The notes under the pieces were generated by a model. The model was not told where the DNA came from and ran no database searches. It saw only the letters and a list, made by a program, of their open reading frames with translations. Shown one piece after another: positions 501-40,445 of a stretch of DNA of 64,000 bases. The translations under genes were made by a program, and so were the position numbers. Location of the stretch: the sequence record PP895363.1; one strand, 5' to 3'. The stretch's first letter is position 1. Each line of letters opens with the position of its first letter. The DNA is from Klebsiella phage FKP3.

Positions 501-817
501 GGCGCCCCCATTTTCAAATTTCCGCGAGTCCCAAATATCAATGAGAATCATTCTCATTATTATTATCATTCAATAACTTACGACACTTTTGGTCAAAGAT
601 TGACCGTATTCCATGCCCATCACGATAAACTGACAATAAATCCTTATAAATCAATGGTTTGGCAGTAATAAACATGTGTTTACAAGGTGCCAAATTGCCA
701 CAAAAGGCGACTGATAACGATTCTCATGACAAATCCACTGTATAAGTGAACAGTATCATGCTGCGCATAGCATCAAACGGCTCGAAAATCAAGATAATTC
801 CTAAAAATTTCTCTTTT
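501..817. repeat. direct repeat, copy 2 (exact 500-bp offset from copy 1)
   Basis: exact identity with 1-317. Confidence 0.9.
540..558. promoter_or_regulatory. 19-bp palindrome copy 2
   Basis: identical to 40-58 (inside the direct repeat). Confidence 0.5.
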
Positions 818-2717: not shown

Positions 2718-3181
2718 GTTAGTTACCTCGTTAAGTTAATTTCGTATTCCTGCCCTACGAGATAAATAATAGCATAACTGATATTTCATGCAAGAGTAGA
2801 TTTGTAAAGAACTGTAAAGAAAACAATTATATGCGAATAGCACACTATAAAATCTTTGTCAAATTTATTTTCATACCCTGTATAAACATACATACCTTTA
2901 AAACGCTCTAGAAACGATTTTAAGCGCTTTTTTGTCCGGGCAATACCCTAGCTCATAAACAAATAGATCTCACTAATAGGAATTTTTCTCATTTAGAAAT
3001 TAAAGTTGGCACGATGTTTGTTGCGAGTAATTCTCATTTGAAGGGAGGCGTCCAAGTTCGGTTAGCTTTCCTGAATGACAGGCAGGTTCGGTGTTTGTCT
3101 CCCCCTGCATCAGGTGCCATCGCATGGCATAAGGATACCAAAAAAGGGGCGATCAAGTCAACCCCTGTAAACACTGTGAAT

Positions 3182-10070: not shown

Positions 10071-10247
10071 ATGATCACAACATCCGATACTATCGTAATG
10101 CTGTACACTTGGGAAACATCAGCTAACCATTGCCAGGCGCGATCTGTTCCCTTACCTCACGCGCTGCGTATGTTGGACGGTGGATTTTATCGGGTTAAAG
10201 TAGTGGCGGAAAACGGCGAAGTGTTAGCGGATACCCTGTATAATTAA
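10071..10247 (+). CDS. small hypothetical protein (58 aa)
   Basis: hand-found ORF with AAGGA RBS; GC hairpin + T-run downstream. Confidence 0.35.
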   Translation: MITTSDTIVMLYTWETSANHCQARSVPLPHALRMLDGGFYRVKVVAENGEVLADTLYN

Positions 10248-10314
10248 TTATCTTGGGGCTTGCAATCGGCGCGGCCCCGGTTTTACTCATTAGACATTCA
10301 CAGGAGATCAAACA

Positions 10315-10578
10315 ATGACCAATACAGAATTGTTAATGAAGGCGCTAGGTTGGAAAGGTGGCACCATTCACCAAGTAGCAAACGAAACCGGGCTAACAGT
10401 ATTAGAAGTCTTAAACCTGCATGATTTACCTGCAACCAGTTCGATAGCCTACGATCACGGATTAAAGGCGCTACAACGTGCCGTGGTATACATTTGCGGC
10501 GCTGTATATTGCTCATGCGCGCATAAACCGGATCGGATCTCCTTTTGGCGCGGTGTGCTGGACGCACAAAAGGCCTAA
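10315..10578 (+). CDS. hypothetical protein
   Basis: ORF 87 aa, AGGAGA RBS 7 nt upstream. Confidence 0.5.
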   Translation: MTNTELLMKALGWKGGTIHQVANETGLTVLEVLNLHDLPATSSIAYDHGLKALQRAVVYICGAVYCSCAHKPDRISFWRGVLDAQKA

Positions 10579-10586
10579 AAATAATG

Positions 10587-10615
10587 TTGACACGTCCCAG
10601 GGAATGGGGCATAAT
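10587..10615 (+). promoter_or_regulatory. strong sigma70-like promoter TTGACA-17-CATAAT
   Basis: read directly; transcribes into palindrome/iteron region with no clear ORF. Confidence 0.5.
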
Positions 10616-10866
10616 GTACCCATACAGGAGATGACACGCCTACCAACGGCGGTAAACTTGGGTGATGATAGCCGCAGGGCATCGACCGCTATAATCGCCG
10701 GTAGCTCGCCTTGAATAGTTTTGTAAAGAAATGTAAAGACCCTTGATCCTGTTGTTGGTTGTGTTATTATTTCTACATGGACAGGGGAACGGTGCTGGCG
10801 AGACAATCACCGCCCCTGCGCGTCATTCTGCAAATGCGAATGAGTATTATTTCGCTTTTAATTGAG

Positions 10867-10885
10867 AATGAGAATGATTCTCATT
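10867..10885. promoter_or_regulatory. 19-bp palindrome copy 3 (AATGAGAAT-G-ATTCTCATT) flanked by degenerate half sites
   Basis: perfect 9-bp arms; nearby gcattctcat and atgagaatagttctcatt partial copies. Confidence 0.5.
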
Positions 10886-10929
10886 TGCATTCTCATCTTA
10901 CATGAGAATAGTTCTCATTAACATCTGGA

Positions 10930-11170
10930 GATTTTTTGAGAATTCTAAATTTTGATCCTGAAAAAATCTAGATCGAAAAGTAAAAAAACTTTTAATAATT
11001 GGGGAATTTTTTGGAAATTTTAAATTTCAGTTTACGTTTTTTCTGTAGCAAGATGCAGAAAAAGTTTAAATAATTTAGGGAAATTCTAAATTTCAGTTTG
11101 CTATATTTTCAGCATAACTTCCACAAAAGTTTTAAATAATTTGAGCACTTTGTTAAAACTTTACTTGGGT
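10930..11170. repeat. iteron-like imperfect direct repeats (AAAAgTTTtAAATAATTtGGG..AATTcTAAATTTCAGTTTgC), 3-4 copies
   Basis: visible repeated units at about 10938, 10985, 11060 and 11125. Confidence 0.55.
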
Positions 11171-11373
11171 ATTGTTCAAGAGTCTATCGAAACAGCTTCT
11201 TAGTTTATTACAACAGCTTACGAAATTAGTCCACTGTTGTCTTAAGTATGGTGCGAGGGATATCAAACTATCTTTCTAAACTTATTGGAAGGGCTAAGGT
11301 GAGGCTCTGAAATATTTACCCCCCACCCCTTCATTCTAAAAAGAAAATTTTTAAAATATCAGATAATATCAGG

Positions 11374-12012
11374 TTAGCCTAACATTGGTAGGAAAAGTCT
11401 GTCGCCACTTAAAATTAGTTCTCTTTGAATTAACCCGTAGATAACGAACCCATGACCACACTTTTTGTCCTCAGCATGAATTACATCATAATAATCCATA
11501 CCTAACTCTTGGTAATGATAGCCGTCAAAGTCCAATAGTGCAATCTTTTCACCATCGTTAACCCGTTTCCACAGATCTTTGAACGTGTCTGTTTGCACCA
11601 CTGCACGAGCGTACATTGGAAAGTAGAGATTACGACGAGCGGAGATGTAGTCCAGTTTCTTGCCGTCCCAGAGGCTGTATAGAGGCTTTCTACCCTTACC
11701 CATAGGGTAGCGTTCTGCTCTCCAGTTGGCCCAACCAGCTCGCGCCCACGTATAATACGCTTCTGTTGGATCACCATTATCGTCTACATGCTCTTCATAC
11801 ACCTTGCTAAACTGCCAGGCGTTCTCCATGTTCTTTGCCACGATACCATCGTACATTGGTATGTCACGTAGATAGAATGGACTTAACTGCTGGCCGTAGC
11901 CTGTCTTATCACGACTTGTGGTATTGACCACTGTAAACCCTTCTGGCACTTTGTCCCGCATACCAACTACGATTAAGTTATCAAACTTCATGGTTATTCC
12001 CCTAATTGTCAT
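11374..12012 (-). CDS. NADAR-like (YbiA/DUF1768-like) protein, putative ADP-ribose/NAD-related hydrolase
   Basis: LSPFY..DIPMYDG..ENAWQFSKV and C-terminal HGFVIYGLIQRE resemble the YbiA/NADAR core (FSNF..DGxxY.S.EHYFQA.K, GHGKGKNRLGYLLMELRE); by memory only. Confidence 0.4.
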   Translation of the reverse strand: MTIRGITMKFDNLIVVGMRDKVPEGFTVVNTTSRDKTGYGQQLSPFYLRDIPMYDGIVAKNMENAWQFSKVYEEHVDDNGDPTEAYYTWARAGWANWRAERYPMGKGRKPLYSLWDGKKLDYISARRNLYFPMYARAVVQTDTFKDLWKRVNDGEKIALLDFDGYHYQELGMDYYDVIHAEDKKCGHGFVIYGLIQRELILSGDRLFLPMLG

Positions 12013-38238: not shown

Positions 38239-38478
38239 ATGTTTAATAATGCAAAGAAAGGTGATATCGCGGTAATGGTAGATACGGACTTTTCAGCACA
38301 CGGAGATAAAGATCAACTGGAGATTGTCCTAGTTGACGAAGAGGGTATCTACGTCTACGATCCGAATGACAGACTCCTTTTCGAACATGCCAGTGGTGTT
38401 GAATACAGCTTCTGTATTGACTTCAACGGTAAGTTGGCAGGACGTGAGCCAGCAATTAAAGAAATCATTCCGCAGTAA
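38239..38478 (+). CDS. hypothetical protein
   Basis: ORF 79 aa. Confidence 0.45.
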   Translation: MFNNAKKGDIAVMVDTDFSAHGDKDQLEIVLVDEEGIYVYDPNDRLLFEHASGVEYSFCIDFNGKLAGREPAIKEIIPQ

Positions 38479-39445
38479 GGTTGACTTTTGCTTAGGGATA
38501 CTTCATAGTGTCCCTTGTCAAGAGAAATAAATAAATGAAGGAGAAAGTATGAAACTTATTTTAGGTCGTGTGTACAATCTGAGCGGTTCCAGTTTTTCTA
38601 CACAAGTTTTAGAAGATAATAATAATCTGTTCTGGCTGGATCACATTGATCAGAGGATGAACGAGTGGCGTTTTAAAGGTTTGACTACAGGGGATTTTCA
38701 GTGGTCAAGCGCGGCTATGATCCGTGCTGGTGAAGCAGAAATTTTCTTGGTAGATGATAAACCGAAACGTGGTAAGCGTAAGAAAGGCCCATCTCGTAAA
38801 GCACCAAGTGTGAATAAGGCGACTATTCTGTTCATGAGCGGGGAAACCTACACTGTAAAAGGCTTTGTGTCCCTTGAAGCCACTGCTGAAAAAACTGTGT
38901 TTATTATGGAAGACACTTGGAAGGATACAGTAAATAGCCGTAATGGCGACTATTCTGTTCATGAGCGGGGAAACCTACACTGTAAAAGGCTTTGTGTCCC
39001 TTGAAGCCACTGCTGAAAAAACTGTGTTTATTATGGAAGACACTTGGAAGGATACAGTAAATAGCCGTAATGCAATCACTGTGTACAATGAGGATATTGC
39101 GCAGATAGATGTTCGTGGAATTAAGCATCAAGTGGTATTAGATATGGCTTTGAAAGATGAAGGCACGTTAGTGCTTCATTCTAAAGATATGCTAATATTT
39201 TTATCAGATCTAACTATTGCGGAATAAATAACAAAAGATGCATAGTACAAGAGATATTCTAAATTTATGGAAAACTACATTATGTAAATTTAAAGAAGAC
39301 TTTCCTGAATACGATGCCCTGCTAAAGGCCAACGGATGGCGAGCAGGTGTTAGAGAAAAAAGAAATAAATCTTTTGGTTGGGCAGATAATAGAAGTAAGT
39401 TAGTTATTATCAATTGGCATCTGCATAAAAACTCGGAAGAGCATA
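38446..39445. repeat. tandem duplication unit 1 (exactly 1000 bp)
   Basis: 38446-39445 identical to 39446-40445. Confidence 0.9.
38549..39227 (+). pseudogene. gene disrupted by internal 127-bp tandem duplication (two ORF fragments 38549..39004 and 38943..39227)
   Basis: 127-bp unit 38819-38945 repeated at 38946-39072 shifts frame; junction creates a new in-frame ATG for the C-terminal fragment. Confidence 0.6.
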
Positions 39446-39459
39446 GAGCCAGCAATTAA
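39238..39459 (+). pseudogene. truncated copy of SprT-like gene (N-terminal 70 codons) ending at duplication junction
   Basis: identical to first 208 nt of 40238..40816, then diverges at the 1000-bp repeat boundary. Confidence 0.6.
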
Positions 39460-40445
39460 AGAAATCATTCCGCAGTAAGGTTGACTTTTGCTTAGGGATA
39501 CTTCATAGTGTCCCTTGTCAAGAGAAATAAATAAATGAAGGAGAAAGTATGAAACTTATTTTAGGTCGTGTGTACAATCTGAGCGGTTCCAGTTTTTCTA
39601 CACAAGTTTTAGAAGATAATAATAATCTGTTCTGGCTGGATCACATTGATCAGAGGATGAACGAGTGGCGTTTTAAAGGTTTGACTACAGGGGATTTTCA
39701 GTGGTCAAGCGCGGCTATGATCCGTGCTGGTGAAGCAGAAATTTTCTTGGTAGATGATAAACCGAAACGTGGTAAGCGTAAGAAAGGCCCATCTCGTAAA
39801 GCACCAAGTGTGAATAAGGCGACTATTCTGTTCATGAGCGGGGAAACCTACACTGTAAAAGGCTTTGTGTCCCTTGAAGCCACTGCTGAAAAAACTGTGT
39901 TTATTATGGAAGACACTTGGAAGGATACAGTAAATAGCCGTAATGGCGACTATTCTGTTCATGAGCGGGGAAACCTACACTGTAAAAGGCTTTGTGTCCC
40001 TTGAAGCCACTGCTGAAAAAACTGTGTTTATTATGGAAGACACTTGGAAGGATACAGTAAATAGCCGTAATGCAATCACTGTGTACAATGAGGATATTGC
40101 GCAGATAGATGTTCGTGGAATTAAGCATCAAGTGGTATTAGATATGGCTTTGAAAGATGAAGGCACGTTAGTGCTTCATTCTAAAGATATGCTAATATTT
40201 TTATCAGATCTAACTATTGCGGAATAAATAACAAAAGATGCATAGTACAAGAGATATTCTAAATTTATGGAAAACTACATTATGTAAATTTAAAGAAGAC
40301 TTTCCTGAATACGATGCCCTGCTAAAGGCCAACGGATGGCGAGCAGGTGTTAGAGAAAAAAGAAATAAATCTTTTGGTTGGGCAGATAATAGAAGTAAGT
40401 TAGTTATTATCAATTGGCATCTGCATAAAAACTCGGAAGAGCATA
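39446..40445. repeat. tandem duplication unit 2 (exactly 1000 bp)
   Basis: exact copy of the preceding 1000 bp. Confidence 0.9.
39549..40227 (+). pseudogene. second copy of the 127-bp-duplication-disrupted gene
   Basis: identical to 38549..39227. Confidence 0.6.

Follow-up and report, generated by a model that had tools for sequence, protein, structure and literature searches.

A conserved non-coding gap of Klebsiella phage FKP3 combines tandem promoters, Fur-like palindromes, and direct repeats

A densely packed gap conserved across phage genera

The DNA analyzed here (the window) is a stretch of 64,000 nucleotides (nt) of Klebsiella phage FKP3 (record PP895363.1), a Stephanstirmvirinae phage whose closest record is Klebsiella phage KP13-26, with 86% identity over 10300-11700. 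Our subject is a gap of 795 base pairs (bp) at 10579-11373 that is free of open reading frames (ORFs) and that an initial annotation had singled out as a regulatory hub. The gap is placed between convergent transcription units: genes run leftward to the left of ~10000 and to the right of 11374, and its right end is the stop codon of a leftward DUF6939 gene (11374..12012, −). Directly upstream lie 10071..10247 and 10315..10578 (+), the sole rightward genes of the first 16 kb. The former encodes a 58-amino-acid DUF7170 protein, a homologue of PVP-SE1 gp201 that is also found just upstream of the gap in PVP-SE1 and KP13-26. The other neighbors encode a DNA methylase, an AAA ATPase, and proteins of no assigned function. 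The gap itself contains the following features, with the strand given where one applies.

10587..10615 (+): promoter P1, TTGACA-17-CATAAT with a G+C-rich dyad spacer, 11/12 match
10622..10715 (+), ends approximate: RNA1, predicted conserved non-coding transcript of P1, from alignment and covariation
10721..10739 (+): TTGTAAAGAAATGTAAAGA, a direct repeat with 10-bp phasing, exact match to the CpxR consensus GTAAA-N5-GTAAA
10743..10770 (+): promoter P2, TTGATC-16-(TG)TATTAT followed by a CATGG start motif, conserved in all genera sampled
10776..10832 (+): P2 leader, a G+C-rich hairpin (CAGGGG..CGGTG / CACCG..CCCCTG) around the conserved GAGACAATCACC (10800-10811), then GTCATTCTG (10822-10830)
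10833..10851: Fur-like box 1, degenerate here (AATGCGAATGAGTATTATT); in relatives AATGAGAATGATTATCATT, 18/19 to the Fur consensus
10864..10885: Fur-like box 2, GAGAAT GAGAAT G ATTCTC ATT, holding the perfect 19-bp palindrome AATGAGAATGATTCTCATT (10867-10885)
10901..10919: Fur-like box 3, CATGAGAATAGTTCTCATT, whose core GAATAGTTCTCATT is the tandem repeat unit of the T5-like phage Gostya9
10929-11005, 11004-11079, and 11070-11145: three imperfect direct repeats of ~75 bp, with start spacings of 75 and 66
11353..11373 (+): tandem AAATATC(A) motif, AAAATATCAG ATAATATCAGG, abutting the stop codon of 11374..12012 (−)

Sensitive blastn matched the left 340 bp of the gap in ~300 phage records of the Stephanstirmvirinae and Vequintavirinae. 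We compared the layout in 12 relatives of at least seven genera and found the same module order in both subfamilies, that is, in KP13-26, phAPEC8, tuntematon, Justusliebigvirus, and KKP_3264 (Stephanstirmvirinae) and in rV5, PVP-SE1, K45PH128C2, CR8, F5M1E, Hena1, and ABPH49 (Vequintavirinae). The gap is ORF-free in 12 of 12 relatives, measures 0.8-1.4 kb, and presents its parts in a constant order: P1, a ~100-nt RNA with a CGCC/GGCG hairpin and the invariant ATCGCCGGTAG, the motif TTGTAAAGAnnTGTAAAGA (GTAAA-N5-GTAAA), P2, a G+C-rich hairpin, one to six palindromic boxes, three direct repeats, and copies of AAATATC(A). Judged by this sequence comparison, ~300 phage records keep the gap as a cis-acting region dense with elements, which bears out its designation as a regulatory hub.

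In the rV5 genome paper, the gap was drawn as a "non-coding" box with no function assigned (PMC3606486). Annotation of the relatives offers only "hypothetical protein", "repeat_region", and predicted promoters or terminators at this place, with no origin or operator. Known before as the rV5 box, the gap has modules and putative Fur and CpxR sites that are undescribed in the searchable open-access literature, where we found no report that these phages or T5-like ones carry consensus sites for Fur or CpxR and nothing relevant on a transcriptome of the group or on the TGTAAAGA motif.

The palindromes resemble host Fur operators

The perfect palindrome of box 2 (AATGAGAATcATTCTCATT) agrees with the gamma-proteobacterial Fur consensus AATGATAATnATTATCATT (9-1-9 form) at 17 of 19 positions, the two mismatches being symmetric, and GAGAATGAGAATGATTCTC (GAGAAT-GAGAAT-G-ATTCTC) agrees at 15 of 19 with the classical Fur box GATAATGATAATCATTATC (PMC3788343). 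Fur boxes are alternatively defined as at least three NAT(A/T)AT hexamers. The palindrome with degenerate half sites reported earlier was recovered, exact at 10867-10885 and accompanied by degenerate boxes at 10833-10851 and 10901-10919, and extra half-sites were located at 10863, 10889 (ATTCTCA, 10889-10895), and 10937. Each of 11 gaps harbors at least one Fur-like site with two or fewer mismatches, 15 in total versus 0.003 expected. The logo of the phage boxes reads AATGA[G/T]AAT[C/G]ATT[C/A]TCATT, with G in 48% and T in 40% of cases at the variable position, indicating that canonical and variant hexamers interchange.

The initial annotation had suggested a genome-wide motif search; over the window, the palindrome proved to be non-random, with eight matches of three or fewer mismatches versus 0.13 expected. 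With up to four mismatches there are 13 sites (11 independent), all in the first 11 kb and none in 11.4-64 kb. Another perfect copy lies far to the left.

540..558: perfect palindrome copy AATGAGAATCATTCTCATT, inside a second ORF-free, A+T-rich region

A further copy at 40-58 is part of an apparently artefactual duplicate: 1-317 repeats 501-817 exactly, so the occurrences at 40 and 540 represent a single locus. The two additional occurrences reported earlier thus count as one, and the copy in the gap is the second independent perfect copy, not the third.

A blind blastn comparison of the box region (10858-10922) with 5,426 complete Escherichia coli genomes retrieved a single locus, present in 1,907 of them. 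In the one match examined (CFT073), this locus is the chuT-chuA heme-uptake intergenic region, whose boxes ATTGAGAATGATCATGATTATCATTT and GATAATAATTCTCATTATC are likewise built from GAGAAT/ATTCTC hexamers; chu promoters are Fur-regulated. As in enterobacterial Fur operators, the phage element is a 19-bp dyad of GA(T/G)AAT hexamers, and its boxes are clustered and overlapping, as at strongly Fur-regulated promoters. It departs from those operators in residing in a virulent phage and in the unusually frequent GAGAAT variant. A phage-encoded Fur was rejected as the binder, since tblastn with E. coli Fur as query uncovered no homologue in Stephanstirmvirinae, Vequintavirinae, or Tequintavirus records.

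The initial annotation had considered the palindromes as possible operators of a phage repressor or early-late switch; on this reading, the products of 10071..10247 and 10315..10578 are candidate binders. The palindromes are indeed limited to the early small-gene part of the window, these two small genes lie directly upstream of the gap on the strand of P1 and P2, the 87-amino-acid product of 10315..10578 is all-helical in a low-confidence AlphaFold model (predicted local distance difference test score, 62.7), and the frequent GAGAAT variant could reflect a non-Fur protein. However, the 87-amino-acid protein has eight homologues among 5.8 billion proteins and no Pfam or PDB match, and the DUF7170 protein is limited to 56 phage records, where neither the matches listed nor the genus tally include an rV5-, phAPEC8-, or T5-type phage; neither matches a DNA-binding family. 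We rejected the former as binder on account of its few homologues, its model being too poor for a fold search, and the latter on account of its narrow distribution. Unlike these neighbor genes, the palindrome is kept in all these phage groups, in the jumbo phage RaK2, and in other contigs, and it is both within one or two bases of the Fur consensus and matched by the E. coli chuT-chuA region. An operator of a phage repressor is consequently an unlikely reading. What stands of the earlier claim is the operator kind of the element, for which host Fur is the likely binder. Given the consensus match, the likeness to chuT/chuA, the recurrence in unrelated phages, and the narrow distribution of the neighbor genes, a conserved host protein, most simply Fur, is the best candidate, and the palindrome is probably a host Fur site.

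Host Fur could also be bound without any phage promoter being regulated, if the amplified boxes served to titrate it and to derepress iron uptake, for example for the phage ribonucleotide reductase. Multicopy Fur boxes do titrate Fur, which is the basis of the Fur titration assay (PMC3788343). The 11 independent Fur-like sites in 11 kb of FKP3, the at least 10 per T5-like terminal repeat, and the location of the boxes outside promoter-occluding positions would all suit such a sponge. On the other hand, the boxes keep a fixed position behind P2 and the P2 hairpin throughout the genera sampled, as well as in RaK2, which speaks for a local role in cis. Fur is, moreover, abundant, at thousands of molecules per cell, so that titration would act only late in infection. 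We regard pure titration as quite improbable.

Box arrays recur in unrelated phages

The exact palindrome was found in at least 120 stretches of the IMG/VR database. In the T5-like phages Gostya9 (L119, 500-1300) and KS_S14 (L120, 700-1300), AAATGAGAATGATTCTCATTT and ~10 tandem Fur-like boxes occupy the untranslated part of the terminal repeat, where the arrays adjoin DnaA boxes. The palindromes and DRC-type repeats of this region come close to the Fur consensus. The T5 untranslated region near the injection stop has been described as a conserved maze of palindromes and repeats, including palindromes PalC-J and DRC/DRD repeats of unexplained function, with no mention of Fur (Davison, bioRxiv 10.1101/866236). 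Untranslated Repeat Region 3 of the T5 left terminal repeat ("iss") resembles the FKP3 gap in being large, ORF-free, and packed with palindromes and direct repeats, and the T5-like region shares with it the palindrome AAATGAGAATGATTCTCATTT, box arrays including the GAATAGTTCTCATT variant, and the repeat TTGTAAAGAAATGTAAAGA, along with GCTAAT-ATTAGC motifs. The two nonetheless belong to unrelated families: paired DnaA boxes and TGTGCAAATCCGAC repeats are found only in the T5 region, and the FKP3 gap has no terminal-repeat context. Arrays of GCTAATGATTAG and GCAAATGATTAGC occur in the T5-like untranslated region as in the second ORF-free region of the window (~26-1990).

Similar arrangements were detected outside these two groups. 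IMGVR_UViG_2595698293_000001 (L028), which we take to be Klebsiella phage RaK2, displays three promoter-to-box units within 1.1 kb, each made of a sigma70 promoter, a leader of ~55-60 nt that ends in cagtactgt, and the box AAATGAGAATCATTATCATT, with one mismatch to the Fur consensus; a CpxR-consensus repeat stands upstream of one unit. An unrelated viral contig (L031) carries three exact copies of ctgAATGAGAATCATTCTCATTTgg with a 30-bp period (1810-1888), preceded by a G+C-rich hairpin and followed after ~22 nt by TTGACA-N17-TATAAT, together with a CpxR-consensus repeat before another promoter. It is conceivable, if somewhat doubtful, that large virulent enterobacterial phages of three or more unrelated lineages (rV5/phAPEC8-type myoviruses, T5-like siphoviruses, and the jumbo phage RaK2) carry host Fur-box arrays in their untranslated control regions, with CpxR-consensus boxes before some promoters, in order to read the iron and envelope-stress state of the host or to titrate Fur, thereby timing early non-coding transcription and possibly replication. 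The T5 "injection stop" palindromes would then be Fur sites.

The T5 parallel admits another reading, namely a cis-acting site for DNA entry, packaging, or end processing, comparable to the T5 "injection stop signal", in which the boxes would be architectural or anchoring elements. In its favor, the same palindrome and box arrays are found in the untranslated region of the T5-like left terminal repeat, and GenBank records of some relatives (e.g., PP357458 and LC739538) start 0.1-3 kb from the gap. Record starts are, however, mostly arbitrary or copied from a reference, the gap is internal in most records, the DnaA-box pairs of T5 are not conserved in it, and what the T5 region does is likewise a matter of hypothesis. 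To our knowledge, two-step injection is not established for rV5-type phages, and we consider an entry or packaging site very unlikely.

Tandem promoters, a CpxR-type repeat, and a conserved RNA

P1 is present exactly as first annotated (TTGACA-17-CATAAT at 10587-10615, 11 of 12 positions), and its -35 and -10 elements are kept in the relatives. Near-identical promoters with G+C-rich dyad spacers occur at 8602-8574 (−) and 4078-4050 (−) of the window. In the relatives (L002, L003, L117, and L118), this early-promoter family likewise shows inverted-repeat G+C-rich spacers, such as ACCCAGCgcaaGCTGGGT in ABPH49, and a CATA/CATG start followed by a 5' stem-loop; the "PHIRE" promoters in the GenBank annotation of phAPEC8 are in fact these stem-loops. 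The earlier statement that neither a good ribosome-binding site nor an ORF follows P1 holds for conserved ones, but FKP3 does contain an unconserved ORF of 27 amino acids from ATG 10631, abutting GGAG. We rejected it as a gene because the start codon is absent in the relatives.

The sequence downstream of P1, RNA1, comprises a CGCC/GGCG hairpin, a possible pseudoknot between its loop and a downstream segment (CCAA/TTGG in FKP3, CCCC/GGGG in relatives), another hairpin, which is variable, and ATCGCCGGTAG, which is invariant. In an alignment of 21 sequences with a mean column identity of 80%, 94% of the cells in these three helices are paired, versus 26-50% in slid controls. Covariation amounted to 0.133 compared with 0.051 in shuffled alignments, none of 500 of which reached the observed value. 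Its main sources are the CCCC/GGGG versus CCAA/TTGG exchange and an AU/GC swap that affects the second helix; in alifold, the covariation term is ~0. The RNA1 core was matched only once in 185,579 bacterial genomes, in a 4-kb contig of a metagenome-assembled genome, so RNA1 is not a host element. A cmscan of the whole window against Rfam returned no match at the gathering threshold; in the gap, at E ≤ 10, only chance microRNA and small nucleolar RNA matches on the palindromes appeared, and in four relatives nothing at E ≤ 1. The non-coding RNA that the initial annotation had envisaged is plausible for the P1 transcript, given its conserved sequence and modest covariation; it corresponds to no Rfam family.

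The record of Klebsiella phage K45PH128C2 (OY978796) annotates tRNA-Lys, tRNA-Ile, and tRNA-Met at 990-1685, the last two over the homologue of the gap. The idea of a tRNA remnant was rejected, as neither ARAGORN nor cmscan detected a tRNA in the window or at that homologue; the coordinates of the OY978796 annotation appear wrong.

The direct repeat that precedes P2 conforms to the CpxR consensus GTAAA-N5-GTAAA (PMC9600279), with its core at 10723-10737, and ends 3 nt before the P2 -35 element (TTGATC). The cpxP promoter of E. coli K-12 has the same CpxR box 6 nt upstream of its -35, that is, just upstream of a sigma70 -35 as in FKP3. However, the orientation of the box relative to the promoter is opposite, and the phage motif is conserved over a longer stretch (TTGTAAAGAnnTGTAAAGA), which makes another factor or an UP-like element possible. 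The CpxR-consensus repeat is found in many unrelated phages of IMG/VR. Of 88 distinct contexts, 18 have a sigma70-like promoter with a CATRG start behind the repeat at the fixed 3-nt gap, whereas the opposite side gives 1 of 88 and shuffled controls give 0 of 88. By blastn, the segment with the CpxR box and P2 has no counterpart in E. coli genomes. We consider CpxR at P2 a lead rather than a demonstration.

P2 itself takes the form CTTGMN-17-TATWWT with a CAT(A/G)G start in the relatives, where the leader hairpin surrounds GAGACAAWCACC and is accompanied by GYYATTCTG. The outer stem of this leader, drawn by hand, is 90.5% paired in 16 sequences, with covariation that is not significant and a reliance on G-U pairs. 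The leader of FKP3 itself folds well, although the palindromes inflate its score (z = -3.96).

These features raise the alternative that the gap is a pure RNA locus, in which P1 and P2 produce small RNAs, the palindromes act as RNA hairpins (weak terminators or protein-binding elements), and the repeats merely separate or terminate convergent transcription units. In support of this, P1 and P2 are each conserved, as is the non-coding sequence behind them, some changes in RNA1 are compensatory, the outer stem of the P2 leader relies on G-U pairs, the first box lies 54-62 nt after the -10 behind a G+C-rich hairpin in rV5-type gaps and RaK2, and the region separates convergently transcribed genes. 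Against this, the palindrome stem has only two G-C pairs and no clean U-tract, and a terminator scan of the gap was empty. Arrays of 5-10 tandem boxes in T5-like phages and three boxes upstream of a promoter in L031 are unlike terminators, no Rfam family matches, and the three conserved ~70-bp repeats would be left unexplained. A locus acting through RNA alone is therefore an improbable account, and Fur-like DNA sites remain our preferred reading of the palindromes.

Three direct repeats and a candidate replication origin

The block at 10929-11145 has 23.5% G+C, compared with 39.9% for the window. Within each ~75-bp unit lies an A+T-rich inverted repeat, and AAAA(C/G)TTT(T/A)AATAATT forms the end of the unit; AAATT(C/T)TAAATTTCAGTTT is complete in two of the units, whereas the first has part of it. 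At an offset of 66, 42 of 60 positions are identical, as opposed to 31.5 ± 1.6 (maximum 37) in 300 dinucleotide shuffles. The direct repeats noted initially are real and significant, but they form three units of ~75 bp instead of three or four of ~45 bp. Three repeats are found at the equivalent position in rV5, CR8, Hena1, ABPH49, and Justusliebigvirus, with a spacing of 63-78 bp and a genus-specific sequence; phAPEC8 is a partial exception, with two clear units 138 bp apart and a degenerate middle one (spacing 90 and 48). Across genera, the unit length is 65-79 bp. Since the repeats keep their number and spacing while changing their sequence, they are likely binding sites of a co-evolving phage protein, whereas the constancy across genera of the promoters and of the Fur- and CpxR-like boxes is what would be expected if conserved host proteins recognized these parts. 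AAATATC(A) is present at the right edge of the gap in two to four copies in all genera sampled (L006, L113, and L115-L118) and resembles the "late" motif TggTAaAAtA of rV5 (PMC3606486).

Iteron origins (lambda ori, oriR of phage P1, and theta plasmids) share with the gap the combination of direct repeats and adjacent A+T-rich DNA, and the divergence of the repeat sequence between relatives is what a co-evolving initiator of such an origin would bring about. Their repeats are, however, of 17-22 bp in four to seven copies, whereas the gap holds three units of 65-79 bp and no DnaA boxes; of the hallmarks of iteron origins, the A+T-rich unwinding region is present and 17-22-bp repeats in helical phase are not. 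The proposal of an origin with iterons holds insofar as the repeats exist and keep their number and spacing among relatives; at ~70 bp they are not classical iterons, no DnaA boxes are conserved, and GC skew is uninformative.

Transcription-activated origins offer a different parallel. At the primary origin of T7, an A+T-rich stretch comes after a pair of tandem promoters, whereas T4 oriF and oriG consist of a promoter and an unwinding element. Similarly, P1 and P2 (both +) point into the 23.5%-G+C block of the gap, along 600 bp without an ORF. The gap differs from those origins in its host sigma70-type promoters and in the Fur-like boxes and three ~75-bp repeats interposed. The phage group encodes a T7-gp4-like primase-helicase (PMC3606486). 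On architectural grounds, the region is possibly a replication origin, although we hold this to be somewhat less likely than not; with their genus-specific sequence and their place behind tandem promoters, the three 70-bp repeats are at present the best origin candidate in these phages.

A host-wired control module as the favored reading

Taken together, 10579-11373 may be a host-wired cis-acting control module in which a Fur operator is joined to a transcription-activated origin, a combined reading that we put forward tentatively. Two tandem host sigma70 promoters would fire rightward against the flanking leftward genes. P1 would yield the ~100-nt conserved non-coding RNA, and P2, possibly boosted by CpxR-P at the consensus repeat ahead of it, would drive transcription through the 5' hairpin and a cluster of three to four Fur boxes into the three A+T-rich ~75-bp repeats. 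Bound between positions +57 and +145 of the transcript from P2, Fur-Fe would gate or organize transcription into these repeats, which would bind a phage-encoded protein. The A+T-rich repeat region would thereby act as a transcription-activated replication origin, like the T7 primary origin or T4 oriF/oriG. The comparison establishes the anatomy, its conservation, the agreement with Fur and CpxR consensus sequences, and the recurrence in unrelated phages; Fur binding, CpxR binding, the transcripts, and origin function are all what we infer here from sequence. If the region is no transcription-activated origin, it would at least be a non-coding control locus.

Several observations weigh against this model. 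Fur commonly represses from sites overlapping the -35 or -10, whereas the Fur-like boxes lie at ~+57 to +145 from the predicted P2 start and not over these elements; no conserved promoter overlaps them, and only weak, non-conserved promoter-like matches do. G at box position 6 (48%) is commoner than expected for E. coli Fur sites, so another protein, of the host or shared by the phages, that prefers TGAGAATnATTCTCA is possible. As for the transcripts, RNA1 covariation derives from few independent events, its single-sequence stability (z = -0.21) is not above that of shuffled sequence, and RNAalifold yielded no consensus structure for the P2 leader. Regarding the origin, the gap has no DnaA box, and none is conserved among the relatives, ABPH49 alone having a perfect one. 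GATC is not enriched in this phage and is not a conserved feature of the gaps. No recognizable initiator gene is adjacent, and the ~70-bp repeats are far longer than classical 17-22-bp iterons. GC skew carries no origin signal and follows gene orientation, as was remarked for rV5, where skew analysis did not locate the origin either (PMC3606486).

Control of virulent-phage development by global regulators of the host is little documented. If Fur, and perhaps CpxR, binds these sites, host iron status and envelope stress would influence infection by a whole class of therapeutic candidates, including phages of the rV5/phAPEC8 and T5 types that attack E. coli, Klebsiella, and Salmonella, two conditions that contrast sharply between the infected animal and broth. 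The same finding would give an identity to the rV5 "non-coding box" and to the palindromes of the T5 terminal repeat.

Other features of the window

A second gap of the window reproduces several of these modules.

2801..3161 (gap 2718-3181): second, smaller gap similar to the first, with a CpxR-consensus repeat, a promoter, a leader copy, and Fur-like boxes

Its CpxR-consensus repeat (2801-2821) is 25 nt from a -10-like TATAAA, the same distance as in P2, and on the other strand stands 9 nt upstream of CTTGCA-17-TATTAT. A minus-strand promoter at 3161-3132 precedes the second leader element GAGACAAACACCGaaCCTGCctGTCATTC (GAGACAAACACC...GTCATTC) at 3104-3067 (−), and Fur-like boxes follow at 3020-3038 and 2975-2993. 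A homologous site is present in IMG/VR locus L084.

Exact duplications were identified in the window, with round offsets of 500 bp (1-317 = 501-817) and 1000 bp (38446-38983 = 39446-39983 and 39034-39445 = 40034-40445), along with a 127-bp exact tandem repeat at 38818-39072 and 39818-40072. They look like assembly artefacts (k = 127), and KP13-26 has the sequence of 1-317/501-817 once only.

The second ORF-free region, which holds the palindrome at 540, extends over ~26-1990 (318-1990 being its non-duplicated part). It is A+T-rich, with 34% GC over ~1.9 kb, and is conserved in KP13-26 as 1.96 kb without a coding sequence. Besides the palindrome, it carries Fur-like boxes at 710, 936, 1590, and 1648 and many GCTAAT half-sites, including the palindrome GCTAATCATTAGC at 1073-1085.

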